Source of the DNA: Bythopirellula sp.
GTDB taxonomy: Bacteria; Planctomycetota; Planctomycetia; Pirellulales; Lacipirellulaceae
Direction of reading: 5' to 3'
Length of the DNA stretch: 64,000 bases
NCBI GenBank assembly: GCA_965216565.1
Contig: OZ244170.1
Location: 3,584,001-3,648,000, forward strand
The notes under the pieces were generated by a model. That model ran no database searches. It worked only from the letters and a program-made list of their open reading frames with translations, and was not told the origin of the DNA. The position numbers and the translations under genes are program-made. The number at the start of each line of letters is the position of its first letter. Within the stretch, counting starts at the first letter, position 1. Positions 10,968 to 34,603 of this stretch are shown here, one piece after another.

Positions 10968-11017
10968 AAAAAAAGACTCATTACGAAGCTTTCTACCCGC
11001 GAGAAAACTTCATACCA
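10968..11017 (-). terminator. Putative terminator/expression platform downstream of the cobalamin riboswitch
   Basis: Minus strand ATGAAGTTTTCT-CGCGGGT-AGAAAGCTTCGT hairpin, followed shortly by a T7 run. Confidence 0.5.
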
Positions 11018-11018
11018 A

Positions 11019-11205
11019 GCGTTGGTAGGTCTTCTGACTCCCAAACTCAAGCCTGGCAATGCCTTCTCGGTCGCCGAGGCGGCCAATGGCTGAAGAAATG
11101 CCTTGCTTGAAGTCGTTTGGTCACAGCGGCGGGGCCGTCCCGGATTCGCACCGGAGTTCCCTGTTTCGTCGGTCGAAGAGCAATCTTTCGACCGACCACC
11201 AACGC
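11019..11205 (-). ncRNA. Cobalamin (B12) riboswitch
   Basis: Minus strand: P1 GCGTTGGT/ACCAACGC, AACAGGGAA, CCGGTGCGAATCCGG, CCCCGCCGCTGTG and B12-box AGTCAGAAGACCT. Confidence 0.93.
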
Positions 11206-11346
11206 ACGTTCAATGCGAAAGCTGTTATAGGCCTGTCATTTCTAATTGTCAAACCCCACCAACTCCGGCTAAAACTTGTTGCTCCCCCCTCTGCGAGCTA
11301 GAATCGAGTATTGAGCTGGGTTGGGGAACCTCGAGAGGATGCACCT

Positions 11347-18866: not shown

Positions 18867-19400
18867 ATGCCCGCAATCCCCGTGTTGACCCATGATCTGC
18901 GAACATTGCATGGGGCCAACGTGCGACGGCTCATGGCCCGACTGAATCTGACACTGCAAGACGTAGTCGAGGCCTCGGATCTCGACGAAAGGACCGTGCG
19001 CAGCATTCTGCAAGGCGTCACACGACCCCATGCCCGTACGCTCCACAAACTAGCCACAGGCCTGGGAGTTGAGGCAGACGAGCTATTTCAGGATCTATCG
19101 CACACCCATCGAGCTTCCTTCGACCGGGCTACCAATCCCGCTGTTTCGGCGGCAATCGATGCCGATCCCCAGCGGTTCGCAGACTGGACCCCCGCCGAGT
19201 TTGAAGAACTATTCAGCCGCATGGCGGTGGGAGGCGAACTGACCGAAGAGGGCGTCCTCACCTCGGCCGAGGCGATTAATTCGCGTCGTCAATTGATGAG
19301 CCAGATAGCTGTGATTCTAGAAAGCGGCGAAGCCGATCACCTGCGCGAGTTTGTCGCCATGCTCTATCATCGCGTGACAGATGTCAGCCATCTCACGTAG
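18867..19400 (+). CDS. XRE-family helix-turn-helix regulator, convergent with the capsid cluster
   Basis: NVRRLM...LTLQDVVEASDLDERTVRSILQG..RPHARTLHKLA.GLGV. Confidence 0.85.
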   Translation: MPAIPVLTHDLRTLHGANVRRLMARLNLTLQDVVEASDLDERTVRSILQGVTRPHARTLHKLATGLGVEADELFQDLSHTHRASFDRATNPAVSAAIDADPQRFADWTPAEFEELFSRMAVGGELTEEGVLTSAEAINSRRQLMSQIAVILESGEADHLREFVAMLYHRVTDVSHLT

Positions 19401-22083: not shown

Positions 22084-23244
22084 CTAGCCAGTGCACTTGA
22101 CGACATACCGAGGGTTGAGAACCGCTGGAGCCCCACGTTCGCTCGCCTTGAAGCGAAGCACGATATCATTATTGAAATCGGCTTCACTATTGATGGGTGC
22201 TTGCGTCACCGTAATTGGCCAATTCTCCATGTAGGCGAACGCCTTCGAGAAGTCGCCGATAAACCAGTACTTCTTCGCATCGGCGGCAGCAACGCCCGAG
22301 TTCACGAGCCGCCGGTAAGCAAGGCGACTTTGCTCCACTCGATAGTTGCCCAAGGGATTGGTAGCGGTCGTCGTGGTCGGCAGGCCCGATCCCACGTATG
22401 CAATCTCCGTGGCGTTGAACACGCGATGAGCGGCATGGCGATAGGCTGGCATCACCAACACGCTTGTCCCGCTAACGAGAACGGGTTCGCCGGTCGCTGG
22501 ATCGCTCATTTCGGCAAACAACTGCTCAGCAGCATCGACATTGGTCCAGTCTACTAACTCGTTCGACGCCAGCAGATTCGCCCAACTGCCAGCGGCAGAG
22601 AACGTATTGAAGTTTGCCCCGTTCTGGTTGAAAGAGTTGGTAATACCCATCACGGTATCGAGTAACCGCTTCTCTTTGTTGAGCCCCAACACCTCGCCTA
22701 CCTCAGCGGCACGCGACAAGATTAAGTTAGTCCTGTCGAAGAAAATCGCTTCTTTCGTCACCGGGACAATAAAACCATGCTTGGCAGTTGACGGCGTTTC
22801 GATGTAGTCTTCGCCGAATCCGAGATGAGGATAGGGCATTCCGTTCCCTACTTCGTCGATTCGATCCTCAATGCGATTGACTCCCGGGATCTTTTCTCCA
22901 TCGAATCGTGTCGGAATCGTTTGAACAAGTTTTGATGCAACGAAGGCTTCCTGGGAATAGGAGTCCAAGATTTTCGAATAGATCACCTGGCCTGCGATGT
23001 TTAGAAATGCGGTGACATCGATTCCGTCGGACGACTCCGTCAAGCTTACTGAACCGCTGCTCCGGGGATCGAGCATCCGCACCCAATGACGGCCTTCGGG
23101 GACGAGTGCCTCCGCCAAATCGCGGATGCTAAAATCTTCTGGTTTCAGATGCCCTTCACTGAGCGATTCGGAAAGATGCCGAACCGTGTTTCCGGCTCCG
23201 TCCAGATCGTAACGCCTCTTAAGTTCTCGATAGTTCAAAGTCAC
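22084..23244 (-). CDS. Major capsid protein (HK97-fold, Mu gpT-like)
   Basis: Position after protease and decoration genes; EVGNGMPYP, KHG.IV.VTKEAIFFDRT, LVMPA and WFIGDF motifs; AGGAG RBS before GTG 23244. Confidence 0.82.
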   Translation of the reverse strand: MTLNYRELKRRYDLDGAGNTVRHLSESLSEGHLKPEDFSIRDLAEALVPEGRHWVRMLDPRSSGSVSLTESSDGIDVTAFLNIAGQVIYSKILDSYSQEAFVASKLVQTIPTRFDGEKIPGVNRIEDRIDEVGNGMPYPHLGFGEDYIETPSTAKHGFIVPVTKEAIFFDRTNLILSRAAEVGEVLGLNKEKRLLDTVMGITNSFNQNGANFNTFSAAGSWANLLASNELVDWTNVDAAEQLFAEMSDPATGEPVLVSGTSVLVMPAYRHAAHRVFNATEIAYVGSGLPTTTTATNPLGNYRVEQSRLAYRRLVNSGVAAADAKKYWFIGDFSKAFAYMENWPITVTQAPINSEADFNNDIVLRFKASERGAPAVLNPRYVVKCTG

Positions 23245-23306
23245 AGATTCTTCTCCTGTTTTGCGGGTAGTCTGATTCTGGCTCTCTGCCTCATCACTCT
23301 TCGAAA

Positions 23307-23780
23307 TTAGGCGGCCGCCTGCGGACCTCCGCGGACCACTGTGCTGACGACATCGACAAACACACTCGTGCTGGCAGTTGGAACCCGCTTCACGCACCGT
23401 CCAATGGCGAGGTTCGCAGAAGCGACCCCTTCTACAATCTGGTCTTCCAGCTCCGTTCCCAAAGCTTCTTCGGCACCGCCGATGAAGTCGCCAATCTCAA
23501 ATGTTGACGAGCTGCACTCGAACTCAAACACGCCACTCGTGGCGACTCGAATGGAACCCGATGATTCCGCTGGTGAGGCCTGCATCGCGACGCCAAGAAA
23601 CTGGTCGTGCAATAATTCTTGATTTGCTGCCGGTGTTCCCTGGTCAGTCAGACCCGAGGCCGGCTTTGCCGTCCCACTATCGAGTACGACCAGATCGCCA
23701 ATTTCGATTCCCGCTGAACTCGAAACCGGCATGAGGATCGGATTCGTCTCTCCGTAACGCCAACGCATAGAACTTGCCAT
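23307..23780 (-). CDS. Head decoration/capsid cement protein
   Basis: IEIGDLV, FLGVAMQAS and IRVATSGVFEF motifs; between protease and capsid genes. Confidence 0.65.
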   Translation of the reverse strand: MASSMRWRYGETNPILMPVSSSAGIEIGDLVVLDSGTAKPASGLTDQGTPAANQELLHDQFLGVAMQASPAESSGSIRVATSGVFEFECSSSTFEIGDFIGGAEEALGTELEDQIVEGVASANLAIGRCVKRVPTASTSVFVDVVSTVVRGGPQAAA

Positions 23781-23829: not shown

Positions 23830-24792
23830 TTAGTTGAGGGAGCCAACACGCTGAATAGCCTTGGCAAACGCTGAAGCACCTTCCGGCTCATTGGAAGGCT
23901 GAGATTGCAGAGCAATTTGATCGACGGAGCGAGGAATCCTGGGCGAGTTTAGTTTCGAGGATGTACCAGCCGTCTCAAGAAGTTCAACCCGCTCCAACAC
24001 TAGCTGTTCGAGTTGCGAATCGTCTTCGATTGCGAGCAACATCTCATAGAAAGCCCGGCTTACCGTTTGAGGCCCCGCAGCACTCCTGTTGCCATTACCT
24101 TCCCGGTGCTTTGGTAAGCGAAGCCCATGCTCACAGAGCAACTCCAGCGTCTTCCTCTGTCGGGCGAGCCCCGCACATCGAACTTCCGACTCTTGCAACT
24201 TTTCACGCAGGCTCTCAGCACTTTGACGACTGTGCTCCTCGAGTAAATCTGGGCGACAATTCTGCAGATGCTCCAAAGTAAGCTCATTCCACTTGAGCCC
24301 TTCTTGATCGTACTCGTACAAACCCAGCGTCGCGGCAGGATCGGCGACCAAGTCGACACTTTGAACATGCGTAATCTCTTCCACCACAGTCGATTGCCCA
24401 TCTCGCGTGACACGTGCGAGTACGTTGTGAGAGACTCCCACATTCCGAGGATTGTGCTCAGCATCCCAAACCAGTTGCTCCGCCAAAGGATGTTTGGGAT
24501 TGAAATGCAAGTCTCCAAACAGCCCTTCGCTTTCGCGAAACTGAACCTCCCGAATCACGCCCAGCCGATCCTGGTAGTCGCGTGGCGATAAGGGCCCGCT
24601 CTTGGGATGATTCACGTTGACTTTTGCTCCTTCATAAAGCGATTGAGCCTTCCGCAGTGCATTTGGTTCATACACCCGGCCATTGCGCGAGGTGAGTCCG
24701 ATAAGCTTCACTCCCTTGAGCACGCCGCGTTTCGAGTCGACACGAAGCGTTGTTCCTTGCGAGTCGACAAATTCTTGTAGAGCTTCGGCCAT
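23830..24792 (-). CDS. Prohead protease/scaffold fusion
   Basis: GVKLIG..SRNGR.Y, VNVNHP, VGVSH and VQSVDLVADPA motifs; coiled-coil C-terminus. Confidence 0.75.
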   Translation of the reverse strand: MAEALQEFVDSQGTTLRVDSKRGVLKGVKLIGLTSRNGRVYEPNALRKAQSLYEGAKVNVNHPKSGPLSPRDYQDRLGVIREVQFRESEGLFGDLHFNPKHPLAEQLVWDAEHNPRNVGVSHNVLARVTRDGQSTVVEEITHVQSVDLVADPAATLGLYEYDQEGLKWNELTLEHLQNCRPDLLEEHSRQSAESLREKLQESEVRCAGLARQRKTLELLCEHGLRLPKHREGNGNRSAAGPQTVSRAFYEMLLAIEDDSQLEQLVLERVELLETAGTSSKLNSPRIPRSVDQIALQSQPSNEPEGASAFAKAIQRVGSLN

Positions 24793-24824
24793 TGTCTGTC
24801 AGTCCTCATTCATCCTTAGTGAAT

Positions 24825-24870
24825 AAAAAAAGCCTCGGACAAAAACCTCAAGGGTTCTCGTCCGAGGCTC
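24825..24870 (-). terminator. Intrinsic terminator/attenuator upstream of the protease-capsid genes
   Basis: AGCCTCGGACGAGAACC-CTTGA-GGTTTTTGTCCGAGGCT followed by a T run. Confidence 0.85.
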
Positions 24871-24943
24871 GATGGGATACGCCTGCCGCTCAATCAGCAC
24901 ACGCTCTTTTCGATACCTGTTTGCCTGGGGTCGCTTACGCCGC

Positions 24944-25123
24944 TTACTTCACCATCCGATCTACGTTGACCCGTGTGTACTGAATGTGTCCGTCTTGTAC
25001 GTTCACCGTCACACTTGCGGTACCAAAGAAGCCACGACCACTGACGCTTTCGATGAGCCTGTCAAATTCCTGACGGGCTTGGGTGCTTCGATCAGTCGAA
25101 TTCAAAGAGTTTTGTTTGCTCAT
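24944..25123 (-). CDS. Small YezD/DUF2292-like protein
   Basis: 59 aa, helix followed by GFFGTASVTVNVQDGHIQ..RV. Confidence 0.55.
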   Translation of the reverse strand: MSKQNSLNSTDRSTQARQEFDRLIESVSGRGFFGTASVTVNVQDGHIQYTRVNVDRMVK

Positions 25124-25168
25124 GATGGGTCTCACTTTAGCAAAATGCGAAGGTCATTTCAGCAACTA

Positions 25169-26572
25169 TTATTGGCCACTTTGGTTGGCCGATTCGTCAC
25201 GATGCATGAGGATGTTCTTTTGCTCCTGGTCATAGTCGAGCCCCAACCGCAGGCTCCATGTTTGAGGTGAAATTAGTCCATTGTCGAACGCCACCTTTTC
25301 GACCTGGCAGTCTCTTACCTGGTCGCGCACCCGTAGCGACGGAGGTGTGATCTGAAGTTCGATCAATTTTCGGGTGTCGCGGTGTAGGCGTCCTTGGGCG
25401 ACCGCATTTTCGATTACATGCCACATCACGCGGCGATCGTCTTCAATGACACTGGCCTGAAGTCTTTCAAACATTTTTACCGCAGGACCCTCTGCTACGA
25501 GTGTCGAGGCATAGTTTGAATTCGAGGCGTCGGAAGTAAACATATACTCTGGCATCACCAGCCTGGCGGCCACGGCACGCAGCTCTGCCTGTAGCACGGT
25601 TACGAAATTACTGGCGTTGATCCCCGCAGCAGGAAAGTCGTACTCGGTGCCGTCAGGGGCATCGAGAATCGTGCCCGGTGAATACTGCGAAAGCTGACGT
25701 CGCCGGCCACTTGCCGGGTCAAGACCACTCGCTTCGCTATTACCGCTGACAAACTGTTCGACACCCGTGCGAGAAGCGCCTCGATGCTTGCGAATTAACG
25801 CAATTGCCGACTGAATTTCTGAAACAATGCTCATGTTTCGCAGCAGTTTTTCTATCCGACGCAGATTCTTGCTCACCGGGTAATACAGGGGCAAACCTCG
25901 TTTCACGTTTCGATCCACGTTTGCCTTTCGATGCTGAACCTCCGTGGCAGGCACCACCTCACCGTCAACAAAATAGGACAAGACCGATTCCACATCATTT
26001 GCCTCTGTATGAATCCCAAAACTAGCCTCCGGACTCTGTAGGAGTTCCCGCGGTGTGACTACTTGATCTGGCTCAACAAATCGAACACGAGTAATACCTG
26101 CGGAATCAACAAAGAATCGAAGAAACAGCTCTCCGTCGCGATCCATACGACGCATCATCTCCTGTTGCCTTGATTGCCATGAGTTCTCTTCCATAAACTC
26201 CTCGAGCAGTTTTTGCACATCCATTTCCAAATTGGTCGGAGCATTAGCACCTTTCCGAGCTGACGCCCGATAATGATGACCGACCCCGACGACATAGCTC
26301 GTCCGGTTTTCAATGCCGTTAATTGCAAACTCATTGGTTGCTACCAAGCGTCGACTCTGTTGGCGGATCTCTGCCAGTTGCTCAGTATTCCCATATGGCA
26401 CGCTGCGGGCTGGGACGCTGCCCTGTTCGCTGGACACAACGTTCCACCAAACGCCATCGTCGTGCACATAGGCTTCAGAGGGATCGACCAGTTGACTCCA
26501 CAACGCATCGCAAGCTTCGGTCAGGCGTTGTTCTAATTGCGCTTGGCTATTGCCGTTTGCCATCGTTGTCAT
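25169..26572 (-). CDS. Phage portal protein
   Basis: RDGELFLRFF, VRFVEPDQV, RGLPL and DASNSNYAS motifs; follows the terminase gene. Confidence 0.88.
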   Translation of the reverse strand: MTTMANGNSQAQLEQRLTEACDALWSQLVDPSEAYVHDDGVWWNVVSSEQGSVPARSVPYGNTEQLAEIRQQSRRLVATNEFAINGIENRTSYVVGVGHHYRASARKGANAPTNLEMDVQKLLEEFMEENSWQSRQQEMMRRMDRDGELFLRFFVDSAGITRVRFVEPDQVVTPRELLQSPEASFGIHTEANDVESVLSYFVDGEVVPATEVQHRKANVDRNVKRGLPLYYPVSKNLRRIEKLLRNMSIVSEIQSAIALIRKHRGASRTGVEQFVSGNSEASGLDPASGRRRQLSQYSPGTILDAPDGTEYDFPAAGINASNFVTVLQAELRAVAARLVMPEYMFTSDASNSNYASTLVAEGPAVKMFERLQASVIEDDRRVMWHVIENAVAQGRLHRDTRKLIELQITPPSLRVRDQVRDCQVEKVAFDNGLISPQTWSLRLGLDYDQEQKNILMHRDESANQSGQ

Positions 26573-26652: not shown

Positions 26653-28269
26653 CTATCCGACTGCCAATCGGTCGCCCAGACCATCGTCGGGAATGTTCTG
26701 GTTCACACTACCAATCAGCCGCACTGCCATCTCGAGGGCGTCCGGACCATCGTCGTGAGCGCCCAGCGGAAAGTCGCGCAGTTGGTCTACAAGTAGCGTG
26801 GTTGAGACGGAGCCTTGCACAAAACGCAAACGCCGCTGCGAAAGCAATGCCTCCAATCGGCGTATTCGAGATTGCTTATTCAGAGTATTGTGAATCGAAC
26901 AGACTTGTAGCGAGCGGAGCCCGCGTGTGTTGCACTCCCGACGAAACTCGTCGGCTAGCAGTTCTTGAAACTGATTGGCTTCTACGCCAAAGGTATTAAC
27001 CCGATGCCGCTCGCAGAGCGTCAACCCATCGGCGACCATCTGCGAGATATGCCGTTTCGCCAAATCGGCTTCGACGTACATGACTCCGCGATCGTCCATG
27101 CCTAGGACAACAAAAGCAGAGTAGTCGCCCTGTCGAGACTGCACGCCTTTGCTGGGATCCAAAGCAATTACTTTCCGCGGCAACTGTTCCGGCCACGCTT
27201 GGAACCACACGTGCTCGCCAAAGTACTCATCCGGCCATTCGCAACGTTCGGGATCGATCGGTGAACTTTGCTTTTCTCTCTCAAATGCACTGCGGCCTTC
27301 TTCCACACACATTTTCATCAGCGTGTATAGATCCTCTTCCTCAGGCCATAAGAGTTCCGCACCTTCATCCATTGCCTTTCTGTTCTTGACATAGAAAAAC
27401 CAAGCATCGCGGCGGGCAGAGTGGTTGCTGAGATCGCAATATATCGTTTCCCATCGCTTCCACAGTGCGTCGTTCGTGGGCCATTTGAGAATTGCCTTGA
27501 ACTTCTTCGAACGCCACCCTGGATTGCGATCGAACTGCATCGCCAGCGCATCGCGGTGGAGGGCTGTTGCTAGGTTGAGAACGTTCGTGTGCTTGGTCCC
27601 CGCCTTGAGTAGGGTTCCATGAAACCAGCGCGTCGAGCTTTCTCGGAGCGTGGCCGATGCCATGTGGTCATCGTTTTGCAAATCATCGCAGACGATCAGC
27701 GAGGGGCGAGACTCTCTGATTCGTCTGCCTCGCAATCGCTGCCCAGTTCCAAAACCTTCGATCACAACTCCATTTGGAAGAATCATAGAACCACGTCGCC
27801 AGCGGGCCCCGCGTCCTGTTGCCTGCGGAAAGTCGCGCGCCAGGAGCGGATTGCCCTCTAGCTCGGCTTTGATGTTCTCCAGATGAGTTTGTGCCTGGTC
27901 CTTGGTATCGGAGACTAGCCAGATGTAAGGCTCCCACGCATCTAGTGCCGCCCGGAGGATGTAGCACAGACTTCCAATGGTCGACTTGGCCCCGCCTCGC
28001 GGGCCGATGACATTGATTTTCGTGCCGCGCTGGTTGTGCATATCGTCCAGCTGCTGTCCTAGCCAGCAGTGCATAACCGAAGGCTGCCGGTGGAAGTGCC
28101 GCGGCAAGTAGCGACGGCCCCACGATAGTGTGTCGAGCTGACTACTACGTTGCTTGCACCGGATACGTCGGCCAATGCCCTGGAACAACGCACGCGACAA
28201 TCGGCTGACGTGGCTATCTACCTGGCACGAGTCGGAGTTGGGGTCGATTCGCCGCCTGTGGTCACTCAT
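26653..28269 (-). CDS. Terminase large subunit
   Basis: Walker A GPRGGAKST, Walker B LIVCDDLQ, nuclease ALDPS..GDYSA, VEANQFQ and HDDGPDAL motifs; ATG overlaps the small-subunit stop. Confidence 0.92.
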   Translation of the reverse strand: MSDHRRRIDPNSDSCQVDSHVSRLSRALFQGIGRRIRCKQRSSQLDTLSWGRRYLPRHFHRQPSVMHCWLGQQLDDMHNQRGTKINVIGPRGGAKSTIGSLCYILRAALDAWEPYIWLVSDTKDQAQTHLENIKAELEGNPLLARDFPQATGRGARWRRGSMILPNGVVIEGFGTGQRLRGRRIRESRPSLIVCDDLQNDDHMASATLRESSTRWFHGTLLKAGTKHTNVLNLATALHRDALAMQFDRNPGWRSKKFKAILKWPTNDALWKRWETIYCDLSNHSARRDAWFFYVKNRKAMDEGAELLWPEEEDLYTLMKMCVEEGRSAFEREKQSSPIDPERCEWPDEYFGEHVWFQAWPEQLPRKVIALDPSKGVQSRQGDYSAFVVLGMDDRGVMYVEADLAKRHISQMVADGLTLCERHRVNTFGVEANQFQELLADEFRRECNTRGLRSLQVCSIHNTLNKQSRIRRLEALLSQRRLRFVQGSVSTTLLVDQLRDFPLGAHDDGPDALEMAVRLIGSVNQNIPDDGLGDRLAVG

Positions 28270-28732
28270 CTTGCGGTTCCTCATGAGTCTCGTCGGGTTC
28301 TGCTTCCGCCATCTGGGCCATTTCAGCAAGTTTCATTAGTACGCGATCACGATCTTCCTCGCAGTTGACGCTAGTGAAAATCACTTCGATCAGCTCTTTC
28401 AAATATTCCTGCAGATCCTTGGTGGTCACAGGCTTGCTAGAATTCCGGTTTCGACGCCGTTTTGCTTTTTGCTCCAACCACCAGGTGGCTGCGCGCCAAT
28501 GCTTTTCATCCTCGGCCGCCTTGTGAACCGCCTTCATACGATGAAGTTCCGCCATCCCTTCGCTGCGTAATAACTCTTGGGCGAACTCTGAGTCGTCCTC
28601 CATCTGTTTTTGAAGTTGAACGATGGTCGCACGCATAGCCTGTGCGGCGGACGCCCGTTCGCAACCCATCTGCACCATGTGACAGATCGCGTGTTTTTGT
28701 TCTGTGGAAAGAGGGGGCGTTGATTCGGGCAT
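28262..28732 (-). CDS. Putative terminase small subunit
   Basis: N-terminal HTH-like segment and WRAATWWLE motif; directly upstream of TerL. Confidence 0.65.
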   Translation of the reverse strand: MPESTPPLSTEQKHAICHMVQMGCERASAAQAMRATIVQLQKQMEDDSEFAQELLRSEGMAELHRMKAVHKAAEDEKHWRAATWWLEQKAKRRRNRNSSKPVTTKDLQEYLKELIEVIFTSVNCEEDRDRVLMKLAEMAQMAEAEPDETHEEPQDE

Positions 28733-32909: not shown

Positions 32910-33500
32910 TTAGACCCCCGCCAATGTAAAGCGATATCGATAGAACGGACTACGGGCCAGATCGGCGGGTTCTGTCACCCGGTCGGCCAAGTGCGGCACC
33001 GGATCGATGCCTCCCCCTACACGATCAGCCAGAGCGCAGGCTTCTGAGCAAAACGGCGGTCGGCTGGTAATCTTTAGATCATCCATATCTGGACGCACCC
33101 ACAATCGCCACATCGGCATGTGCCGCAACGCGGCGAGGAGCACGCCGAAATATCCGTAGTCGCAGCCAGCCAACCGCCGAATGTACCTCACAGCACCCGG
33201 TTGGTCGTAACCTCGCCAACGATCGCCGGGATTGGTTTCGAACACGTCAATCGATCCGGGCAGTCGTGCCACCTGGCTTTCCAGTGTCACGGCACGGCCT
33301 CCCTGCAGTTCGCGCACTTCGCAGCAAAACAAGGTATCGCCCCACCAAACCGCTCGCGCCGCATGGGTGTATTCGCTACGACCCGCGATGCGAATCAAGC
33401 GTGCCAAGAATCCGCGACCTCGAAAGAGCAATAGATCGCCGTCGCAGATGCGATCTTCCGCGTGCCGAAGCAACAACAAGGATCGAAAGTTGGTTTCCAA
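32910..33500 (-). CDS. Permuted papain-like (YiiX/YaeF, NlpC/P60) protein
   Basis: DGDLLLFRG, YTHAA, G.DY, FCSE and VTEPADL motifs; GGAGGGG RBS before TTG 33500. Confidence 0.75.
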   Translation of the reverse strand: METNFRSLLLLRHAEDRICDGDLLLFRGRGFLARLIRIAGRSEYTHAARAVWWGDTLFCCEVRELQGGRAVTLESQVARLPGSIDVFETNPGDRWRGYDQPGAVRYIRRLAGCDYGYFGVLLAALRHMPMWRLWVRPDMDDLKITSRPPFCSEACALADRVGGGIDPVPHLADRVTEPADLARSPFYRYRFTLAGV

Positions 33501-33527
33501 GAGTGTTTCGCCCCTCCGAGTGCGCAC

Positions 33528-33570
33528 AAAAAAAGCCCGGCGAGAACACAATGGTCCTCAGCCGGGCTCT
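33528..33570 (-). terminator. Intrinsic terminator/attenuator in the leader of the cluster's first gene
   Basis: AGCCCGGC-TGAGGACCATTGTGTTCTC-GCCGGGCT followed by a T run. Confidence 0.8.
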
Positions 33571-33910
33571 TCGGATACCTGCATTAGGCTCTGGTAGATA
33601 CCTCAACGACAAGAGCTAACTTATCGCAAAGCGTGGCCCAAGTTCAAAGAGAAAGTGAGAAGATTTCGAACGCGCCTTGGCATGACTCGATAGCAACGAC
33701 GGTCCTTGGCTTCGGAATAACATCAACACTAAGATGTTCTTAGTGAGCCTTCCCCTAGATGCGTCGGCCGATGAAACCCTGTGCAGGTTAGTAAGAGTGG
33801 ATATGCTCCAGCTTTGGATGTAACTACAATGTACATCCGCTACATAGAAACGTGTCCGCCACTACTTTCAATGCCATGATAAAACTTGTCCTCTCTTACA
33901 GGCCATCCCT

Positions 33911-34603
33911 ATGCACTTGAAATACGAGAACAGAGTTTTCGGAGAACCTCTACAACTCCTTGACCCTCCTAACTCTCGACTCATGTGGCAAACCCTAGGT
34001 CCTGCGTGGCGTATATCAAGTGGTAACGTTTATCGCTTGAGCTTTTTCCCATCCGTTGACGGCATACAGAAAATTCGGTCTTCCGACATGGCGTTTCCAG
34101 AGGAATGTTGCGTCTGTAGCGAGCCTTCAACGTGTATGCTTCCAATCAGGCCACGGTCGTGGATGCGTTATTTACTAGAGAGATTCGGATGGAAAGAGCC
34201 ACTGAGTATTCCTCATTGCAAAAAGCACTCAAATAGAAGATATGCTGTTTTTTGCGGTGGTTTCTACCTCATTGGCTCACCAGAAGTTCGGTGCTATTGC
34301 CTAGGGCTTAACCAACAATTCCTAGAGAAGATCCGTGACTCTTATTCAGAAGGGGAATGCCAACCGCCTTGGGAATTTGCACCTAGACATCATTGTGATA
34401 GTGGCTGGCACCTCAGTACCGTTGAAGAGAACTGGGTAGGTAACTATTGGCGTCCATTTTGGACCAGTTTGAATGAAATAGAAAGGCTAGAGTATCTAAA
34501 GCGATGGAACGCTGACGAAACCTGGAGGGCTTCCTTTCTGAATAAAGACGGTGCATGGCACAGAAGAAGCGACGAAAAATACTGGACTGCCGACTCTAAA
34601 TGA
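33911..34603 (+). CDS. Hypothetical protein (Cys/His-rich N-part, Trp-rich PPW domain), AT-richer
   Basis: 230-aa ORF; CCVC...HCKKH; PPW...W...YWRPFW..L...ER.EYL. Confidence 0.6.
   Translation: MHLKYENRVFGEPLQLLDPPNSRLMWQTLGPAWRISSGNVYRLSFFPSVDGIQKIRSSDMAFPEECCVCSEPSTCMLPIRPRSWMRYLLERFGWKEPLSIPHCKKHSNRRYAVFCGGFYLIGSPEVRCYCLGLNQQFLEKIRDSYSEGECQPPWEFAPRHHCDSGWHLSTVEENWVGNYWRPFWTSLNEIERLEYLKRWNADETWRASFLNKDGAWHRRSDEKYWTADSK

Follow-up and report, generated by a model that had tools for sequence, protein, structure and literature searches.

A candidate terminator/antiterminator leader RNA in a phage-derived gene cluster of Pirellulales

Here, we analysed a 64,000-nucleotide (nt) stretch of the genome of a Bythopirellula species (order Pirellulales; contig OZ244170.1, positions 3,584,001 to 3,648,000), hereafter the window, and characterised a structured element of about 90 nt that occurs in it twice, at sites A and B, on the minus strand of a phage-derived gene cluster. 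The element consists of the motif GGUAUC-N5-GAGCC, a variable hairpin (P1), a second copy of the motif and a strong intrinsic terminator, and it appears to be a previously undescribed RNA family that is spread across the order Pirellulales and matches no Rfam family. What is new here is that the two motif copies are predicted to pair with each other, which would explain their tandem arrangement. We propose, giving this reading about an even chance, that the element is a cis-acting leader or attenuator RNA with two mutually exclusive folds, of which the one that permits transcription is stabilised by a dimeric protein.

Two copies of the element in the window

Site A lies between the gene for a small protein, g63, and a protease gene. 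It spans positions 24824-24920 (coordinates are those of the window and refer to the minus strand unless marked (+)) and is matched with 65.1 bits (E = 1.3e-14) by R1, our covariance model of the element, over motif 1, P1, motif 2, the terminator and the U tract. Motif 1 (GGUAUCGAAAAGAGCG, 24902-24917) is the proposed 5′ strand of the antiterminator, and motif 2 (CGUAUCCCAUCGAGCC, 24866-24881) could be paired either with motif 1 or, via its GAGCC, with the 3′ arm of the terminator. On the minus strand, the two read AGGTATC-GAAA-AGAGC (24918-24903) and (GGC)GTATC-CCATC-GAGCC (24881-24866). The terminator (24825-24870) is a stem of 18 pairs, 9 of them GC, with a loop of 5 (24870-24830) and a tract of seven T (24831-24825) that ends 32 nt ahead of the protease ATG at 24792; the 5′ start of the stem is the GAGCC of motif 2.

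Site B, the leader of the cluster (33527-33605; R1 match of 52.8 bits, E = 2.9e-11), is built in the same way, with motif 1 (GGUAUCUACCAGAGCC, 33587-33602) in the context AGGTATC-TACC-AGAGC (33603-33588), motif 2 (AGGUAUCCGAAGAGCC, 33565-33580) in the form AGGTATC-CGA-AGAGCC (33580-33565) and, next to it, an intrinsic terminator (33528-33569) with the stem at 33569-33535 and seven T at 33534-33528. The two sites are copies of one element, and both regions fold better than their shuffled versions (z -3.47 and -4.01). An earlier note on this DNA had described the motif and its variant at site A, the overlap of GAGCC with the terminator 5′ arm (GAGCC opens the stem at 24870), a gap of about 30 nt between the U tract and the protease ATG, and a second copy at 33528-33603, and in all of this our measurements agree with it. 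The terminator stem with a U tract is likewise there, with one pair more than the 17 it had counted, and its motif is correct apart from the spacing, which is better given as N5 than as N4.

The bare 16-mer is not beyond chance, and the significance of the element rests on structure and conservation. The 16-mer pattern has 2 exact matches in the window, with 3.67 +/- 1.84 expected at up to two mismatches, and 3 in the whole genome, namely sites A and B and a third match (C1:3495456) without a terminator; at up to one mismatch, there are 26 matches genome-wide versus 19 for a reversed control pattern. By contrast with these counts, R1 picks out sites A and B in the 5.2-Mb genome at 65.1 and 52.8 bits (E = 5e-14 and 1e-10), the third-best match (25.7 bits) being a plain terminator without the motif. 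The R1 search of this genome yielded no further copies, and the possibility that the motif is a genome-wide repeat is rejected, given that the genome carries two copies only. Separately, the heptamer AGGTATC was seen 11 times in the window versus 3.2 expected, a count that 0 of 100 shuffles reached; 3 of the 11 occurrences fall in the two elements and the remaining ones are unaccounted for.

Conservation and distribution

The element is found upstream of the protease gene in 76 of 80 related loci, and 2 of the 4 misses have less than 300 nt of flanking sequence. The layout of the orthologs is GGTATC-N5-GAGCC, a hairpin of variable sequence, (G/A)GTATC-N5-GAGCC and a terminator with a T run. 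Within the family, R1 matches 54 of 61 genomes and leaves 7 with none; exactly two copies are carried by 37, a single one by 14, three by 2 and six by 1. Within the order, it matches 86 of 151, and many genomes there have 3-11 copies; outside the order but in the same phylum, matches were obtained in 3 of 150 genomes, every one at 39 bits or less.

Rfam 15 finds a single gathering-level match in the window, a cobalamin riboswitch (RF00174, 99.1 bits, 11007-11218) upstream of minus-strand genes, and none at sites A and B, for which the E-value mode returns hairpin-level matches only (best 21.9 bits versus a threshold of 66). The portions of the literature that we searched contain no description of the element, of the Pirellulales capsid cluster or of an antiterminator in front of polymorphic toxins. 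Conservation in orthologous leaders, covariation and an Rfam search were the checks that the earlier note had named for its claim of a switch without a named RNA family, and each of them is in keeping with it: the element recurs in the orthologous leaders, no family reaches its gathering score, and both helices covary by RNAalifold and by pair counts.

At one locus (L143, genome G026; G, L and f numbers are our handles for genomes, loci and families) from a family without the element, the 300 nt upstream of the protease gene hold a different leader of like logic, with a TTGACA-17-TATACT promoter, two direct repeats of CGAGACCTTTAGTTAA and then a terminator, that is, an analogous switch with another motif.

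Alternative helices of the element

Pair counts were made on A2, a MAFFT alignment of 73 element copies. The RNAalifold consensus on A2 has 21 pairs, 16 of which show compensatory changes. In P1 and the terminator, 92.7% of the alignment cells are paired versus 34-49% after sliding the 3′ partner along by 1-3 columns, and the covariation score is 0.66 versus at most 0.15 in the slid versions; 0 of 500 shuffles attain the observed values. P1 is a single variable hairpin with varied loop lengths, in which the conserved bases are located in stems and bulges, not in loops, and the strength of the terminator ranges from -18 to -41 kcal/mol across copies. The GGU of motif 1, the GAGCC of motif 2 and the GGC of the terminator are invariant, which fits the three-way pairing constraint imposed by two alternative helices; the CC of motif 1 and the GG of motif 2 pair only in P1 and both covary freely.

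The second helix would be formed by the motif copies themselves, two direct repeats that are mutually complementary because the motif is an imperfect palindrome. When folded without the 3′ arm of the terminator, 72 of 84 parsed elements pair motif 1 with motif 2 in the minimum-energy fold, and this pairing adds a mean of -6.9 kcal/mol over P1 alone; the antiterminator fold of site A has -19.5 kcal/mol (z -3.06). At the bottom of the helix, G1G2U3 pairs with G14'C15'C16' and, past a bulged A4, U5C6G7 with C11'G12'A13'; in the upper part, an internal loop of about 3x3 is followed by C11G12A13 paired with U5'C6'G7', a bulged A4' and the base of P1. The helix is pseudo-two-fold symmetric and sequesters CGAGCC, the 5′ base of the terminator. 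In the MAFFT alignment, 87.6% of the cross-motif pairs are paired versus 28-50% in slid versions, and two informative pairs, columns 10-65 (CG 59, UG 6, UA 4, other 4) and 18-57 (GC 65, AU 4, GU 3, other 1), account for 8 compensatory double changes in total.

Mini-hairpins within each motif (GGU-A-UCG NNN CGA-GCC) were considered as the recognised unit and are disfavoured for motif 2. At the positions that inform the cross-motif helix, such hairpins yield 13 mismatches and not one compensatory change; for motif 2, there are 8 mismatches at columns 57-65, and the first two pairs of its hairpin are unpaired in 22 and 9 of 73 sequences. A transient mini-hairpin of motif 1 is possible.

Without constraints, the minimum-energy fold holds the terminator in 75 of 80 parsed elements, and forcing the antiterminator costs a median of 7.8 kcal/mol. 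The energetics thus suggest that the default state is OFF, i.e., termination, and, with the terminator fold favoured by this much, read-through should need a stabilising factor.

The gene cluster and its two terminators

The cluster runs on the minus strand from 33.6 to 19.4 kb. It starts with the PHROG 1128 protein (196-213 amino acids (aa)), a trypsin-like protease and several small open reading frames (ORFs), continues with a ParB-like protein, a P-loop+GNAT protein, a TerS-like helix-turn-helix (HTH) protein, TerL, the portal and the 63-aa g63, and ends, behind site A, with the protease-like gene, a decoration protein, the major capsid protein and five further proteins. The first gene behind site B (32910-33500; PHROG 1128, no Pfam family) has a probable TTG start at 33500, 10 nt after GGAGGGG and 27 nt after the T run. 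The packaging module, between sites B and A, comprises the TerS-like HTH protein (28262-28732), TerL (26653-28329) and the portal (25169-26572). The first gene after site A encodes the 320-aa head maturation protease-like protein (23830-24792; phrog_207, E = 2.3e-4), followed by the decoration (cement) protein gene (23307-23780) and the major capsid protein (Phage_capsid_4, 22084-23397), the true start of which is probably later than annotated because the decoration protein gene lies upstream and overlaps.

Of 401 genomes from the order, 222 encode a homolog of the protease, as do 53 of 58 from the family, mostly with a single copy; the related loci also agree in gene order, down to the host genes on either side (EEP353/MoCF and HTH177/FMO). 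The cluster looks vertically inherited and domesticated, rather than like a recent prophage. As in a gene transfer agent (GTA), inheritance appears vertical at a fixed chromosomal place, and of the head and tail set the TerS-like protein, TerL, portal, protease, decoration and capsid proteins were found; Pfam and PHROGs detected no tail, integrase or lysis family in 19.4-33.6 kb. The packaging module is inverted in three loci (L102, L110 and L118). In L102 and L118, the unit of g63, element and protease is intact and the inverted module carries its own copy of the element; in L110, g63 still stands ahead of the protease, yet R1 finds no element.

Upstream of site B lies a sigma-70-like promoter (33618-33647) with a -35 box TTGAAC (33647-33642), the sequence GGGCCAC (33639-33633) and a -10 box TAAGTT (33623-33618). 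Site-B orthologs are preceded by TTTTT, TTGAAA, a spacer with (G/T)GCCAC, and TAnnnT ending 15-22 nt before motif 1, and this promoter motif was found upstream of 19 of 23 site-B copies versus 1 of 68 other copies; transcription of the cluster would start at site B, judging from the position of the promoter. The ATTGGGCCAC-like element conserved in the promoter spacer of the cluster leader (window 33633-33639 and the site-B orthologs), of which the reverse complement GTGGCCCAAT is found just upstream of the -35 box in the extra copies of genome G132 (L134-L137), may be the site of a transcription factor or of a Q/GafZ-like factor. From the end of the element to the protease start, the distance is 44 nt in the median (range 17-220). 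This gap is too short for a promoter, so that the protease, decoration and capsid genes should be reachable only by read-through, and the gating of the capsid genes suggested by the earlier note is upheld to this extent. By all appearances, site B is the promoter-proximal leader of the cluster and site A, 8.7 kb downstream of it, an internal gate.

Three further features surround the cluster. At its distal end, the cluster is met by a convergent XRE-type HTH gene (18867-19400 (+)), which tblastn detects there in 35 of 80 loci and which might encode a cluster repressor. Between the host gene EEP353 and the cluster lies an ORF for a 230-aa Cys/Trp-rich protein (33911-34603 (+)); this divergent gene was rejected as a regulator, with 0 homologs in the 80 related loci, and looks like an insertion particular to this genome. 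Four loci (L046, L050, L052 and L058) contain, towards their 3′ ends and several kb past the cluster, extended tandem arrays of GACTTCTTAGCGGC-like units, probably a repetitive coding region on the opposite strand.

The same leader on other genes

We inspected 37 extra loci of multi-copy genomes (G384, G090, G132, G099, G141, G041, G076, G050 and G028). G384, a genome in which neither protease nor portal nor g63 was detected, has six near-identical copies (L123-L128), each with a near-consensus promoter (TTGACT, about 17 nt, TACTAT), and 2 of the 6 precede orphan TerS-like HTH genes homologous to that of the window; the repeat reaches more than 250 nt downstream in four copies. Among the extra copies of the other genomes, one is a site A, and four resemble site B and have a trypsin-like gene behind them.

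A Pfam toxin or immunity domain lies within the first three downstream ORFs in 11 of the 37 extra loci (DddA-like/Imm1, AHH/Imm11, WHH/SUKH, EC869-like, SUKH-Ank and DMP19), and three further loci share N-terminal regions with those toxins. The toxin operons represent three N-terminal families with variable C-termini, none of which matches a cluster protein over the N-terminus in BLASTP at 1e-3. Copies ahead of polymorphic toxin-immunity operons occur in G090, G132, G141, G041, G076, G050 and G028, and those at L131, L133, L134-L136, L138, L151-L153, L156, L160, L163 and L164 have their own promoter. Taken together with the cluster, the element looks like a common leader of genes hazardous to the cell.

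In some of the toxin-type leaders (L131, L133, L159, L160 and L162-L164), an extra 5′ hairpin (GATCAC...GTGATC) abuts motif 1 and the -10 box (TGnTAGnnT) lies about 65 nt upstream, which makes these leaders longer than that of the cluster. At another locus (L147, G099:C11), an ORF of 126 aa and a DnaE-like DNA polymerase III alpha gene follow the leader, which hints at a tie to damage-inducible functions.

Candidate factors

The gene g63 (24944-25135), directly upstream of site A, encodes a small conserved protein of 63 aa that we regard as a weak candidate for the factor. A hidden Markov model finds g63 directly ahead of site A in 78 of 80 loci, with the flank missing in the remaining two, and in 0 of 5 loci from families whose protease gene is not preceded by the element. 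Of 151 genomes in the order, 76 have g63 and 86 the element, with close co-occurrence by family: f14, f20 and f24 have neither, and f22, f25 and f30 have both in every genome. No Pfam family matches g63 (DUF2292 is matched by 1 of 18 members only, E = 0.15), nothing significant was found among PDB sequences, and the AlphaFold 2 model, a helix and a beta hairpin, has a predicted local distance difference test score of 66, too low for a fold search. Translational coupling of site A to g63 is rejected: the gap from the stop codon to the motif is 26 nt here and widely variable in relatives, and site B has no upstream ORF. As for known antitermination proteins, the genome has one NusG match (PF02357) and no specialised paralogue of the RfaH/LoaP type that acts through ops-type sites; ANTAR (PF03861) has 0 matches in the genome, the control also being 0 of 14 genomes.

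Mechanism and alternatives

In the mechanism that we propose, the terminator fold would have P1 formed and the terminator base closed by the GAGCC of motif 2, and transcription would stop. In the antiterminator fold, motif 1 (GGU-A-UCG...CGA-GCC) would pair antiparallel with motif 2 and prolong P1 downward in a layout of 3 bp, bulged A, 3 bp, internal loop of about 3x3, 3 bp, bulged A, 3 bp; CGAGCC would thereby be kept off the 3′ arm of the terminator, and RNA polymerase would read through. The terminator fold being the more stable, the switch would be OFF by default, and read-through would require an agent that stabilises the antiterminator, for which the likeliest candidate is an RNA-binding protein that grips the helix as a homodimer, comparable to LicT/BglG on the RAT (ribonucleic antiterminator) hairpin. 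A homodimer is favoured by the symmetry of the helix together with the invariant bulged adenosines and the wobble pairs. Site A would be the same switch, reused 8.7 kb downstream, ahead of the protease, decoration and capsid genes. We infer that termination takes place in vivo and that a factor, probably a protein, relieves it. The earlier note had invoked an antitermination switch in which a protein bound to the tandem motif blocks folding of the terminator; the overlap of the motif with the terminator base supports the switch, but the motif copies are not simply two single-stranded protein sites, as they are predicted to pair with each other, and the switch would thus be part of the RNA itself.

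Several observations weigh against this reading. Most antiterminator pairs are invariant and hence uninformative either way, so that the support from covariation comes down to two pairs with 4 compensatory sequences each, possibly of shared ancestry, and 24 and 33 of 73 sequences lack the pairs at columns 11-64 and 17-59, respectively. The antiterminator of site B in the window has only -5.5 kcal/mol and is no better than shuffles (z 0.27). The antiterminator folds and the energy cost were computed on an alignment (A3, 109 rows) that was itself fitted to the model, and pattern parsing dropped 25 of its rows for the fold count and 29 for the energy cost. Finally, elements occur without a detectable g63 in G384 (6 copies), G041, G076 and G036, and CAT_RBD (PF03123), the RNA-binding domain of the LicT/BglG type of protein, has 0 matches in the genome, which is 94% complete, in a search for which the control was positive in 4 of 14 genomes.

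Among the alternatives, an ON riboswitch, in which a small molecule binds the internal loop and the bulged adenosines and stabilises the antiterminator, is unlikely though worth keeping in view. The architecture is that of an ON switch, with an antiterminator that shares a strand with a terminator favoured by a median of 7.8 kcal/mol, no cognate protein was found, and small aptamers embedded in terminators exist, the HMP-PP (hydroxymethylpyrimidine pyrophosphate) thiS class being an example in the descriptions available to us; but the conserved part amounts to only some 22 nucleotides in a symmetric duplex, the central loop (the N positions) is poorly conserved, and nothing metabolic or transport-related among the regulated capsid, toxin and TerS-like genes points to a ligand. 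Processive antitermination of the Q/AlpA/GafZ kind, which we consider improbable, would have a factor on the promoter GGCCAC board the polymerase and make it ignore both terminators, the RNA motif being an accessory pause or recruitment site or a tuner of terminator strength. Of the site-B copies, 19 of 23 have (G/T)GCCAC in the spacer, and 9 of 37 extra loci have it as well; this position is that of the Q, AlpA and putative GafZ elements according to the part of the GafYZ study available to us (PMC11150451), and a single internal terminator 8.7 kb downstream fits such a scheme. Against it, GGCCAC is missing from 28 of the 37 extra loci, including many toxin-type leaders, the covariation of motif 1 with motif 2 would not be required, and the repeat of the motif at site A, which is without a promoter (1 of 68), would be unneeded. 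A promoter-loaded mechanism of the Q/GafZ type acting via GGCCAC could nevertheless coexist with the RNA clamp or replace it.

Equally improbable, in our judgement, is a factor-independent attenuator or insulator, with a fixed low read-through that shields dangerous genes from upstream transcription and a competing helix that only tunes efficiency. The terminators are indeed strong (-18 to -41 kcal/mol), and insulation is plausible in that several relatives have a host gene of like orientation just ahead of site B (e.g., EEP353 in L039, L041 and L043); what an insulator leaves unexplained is the invariance of the bulged adenosines and wobble pairs across the order and the presence of the same leader on unlinked toxin operons with promoters of their own. 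That the terminated transcript of about 90 nt is itself the product, a trans-acting small RNA or protein sponge, is very unlikely. Site B and the extra copies would transcribe it from promoters of their own, and site A would release it as a fragment of a 3′ untranslated region. Multi-copy units of near-consensus promoter, element and terminator (6 in G384, 5 near-identical in G132) speak for such a product, but the downstream genes start 17-220 nt past the terminator, with no room for a promoter, so that read-through would be needed anyway. A DNA-level site, either tandem operators or a pac/TerS recognition site, is disfavoured and has next to no probability in our estimation; the TerS-like genes after 2 of 6 G384 copies are outweighed by the strand-specific placement with a U tract, the covariation of P1 and of the cross-motif pairs, and the occurrence before toxin operons.

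Returning to the clamped antiterminator, we advance, quite tentatively, a broader version of it, in which the symmetric antiterminator clamped by a dimeric protein (with g63 as a weak candidate) defines an order-wide regulon that switches on the capsid and packaging machine together with toxin-immunity cassettes. If true, the capsid would be part of a toxin-release, toxin-delivery or altruistic-lysis programme and not a relic prophage. Regardless, an RNA family supported by covariation is added to a phylum in which gene regulation is almost unexplored, and a concrete, mutable switch is located ahead of the capsid genes in a phage-derived cluster conserved across Pirellulales. The leader on toxin operons provides a handle for finding the regulator and for asking what purpose the domesticated capsid cluster serves.

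Comparison with known systems

The closest likeness is to the RAT and co-antiterminator (CAT) systems. RAT/CAT geometry is that of a quasi-symmetric hairpin whose bulges and internal loops lend themselves to clamping by a dimer, as for LicT/BglG. As in the BglG-LicT-SacY systems, one strand serves both a weak antiterminator and the 5′ base of a stronger terminator, the helix of motif 1 and motif 2 overlapping the terminator 5′ arm and sequestering CGAGCC. The differences are that there is no sequence likeness (RF03530, bglG-cis-reg, 14.3 bits versus a gathering score of 80), that the genome is without a CAT_RBD protein, that the regulated genes here are phage-derived and toxin genes, whereas those of RAT systems are sugar operons, and that the strands here are a direct repeat split by a variable hairpin.

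ANTAR leaders have two small hexaloop hairpins (with A1 and G4), the second of which overlaps the terminator; our element has a single variable hairpin, P1, with varied loops and with conserved bases in stems and bulges. The order of promoter, repeat and terminator recalls type III toxin-antitoxin systems (ToxIN-like), but the genes after the element encode the PHROG-1128 protein, the protease, TerS-like proteins and polymorphic toxins, none with a Pfam match to ToxN/AbiQ. Lambda N/nut, HK022 put, lambda Q and Pseudomonas aeruginosa AlpA combine leader terminators with reiterated cis sites (nutL/nutR, putL/putR) and, like the present element, serve phage or phage-derived operons. These systems act processively on the polymerase, whereas the element described here, in which no boxA/boxB-like or put-like structure was seen, overlaps each terminator and would compete locally.

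In biological setting, the nearest parallel is the Caulobacter GTA, a phage-like cluster of about 14 kb that, as far as the accessible part of the report goes, is held off by internal terminators and needs anti-termination by GafYZ (Tran & Le 2024; PMC11150451). There, GafZ lets the polymerase bypass a terminator inside the cluster, made of three GC-rich repeats of 150 bp after the first gene, the factor being loaded at the promoter (PMC11150451). Shared features are a domesticated phage-like cluster with terminators inside it and a conserved element between the -35 and -10 boxes, here the putative factor site (G/T)GCCAC, which 19 of 23 site-B promoters have in the spacer. In the accessible part, no RNA switch is described for GafYZ, whereas here a compact terminator/antiterminator pair stands at two sites, and taxon and genes are unrelated. 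After GafYZ in Caulobacter, the Pirellulales cluster would provide a second instance, by a different mechanism, of internal terminators keeping a domesticated phage cluster silent.

The connection with toxins brings to mind the MuF systems, prophage remnants (terminase, portal and capsid) tied to polymorphic toxins, which, in the sections of the paper available to us, were proposed to be delivery devices (Zhang et al. 2012, PMC3482391). No MuF domain was found in our analysis, and Planctomycetes are absent from the MuF table of that paper (PMC3482391). The tie described there is one of gene fusion or neighbourhood, whereas the tie that we report here is a shared leader RNA on unlinked loci.

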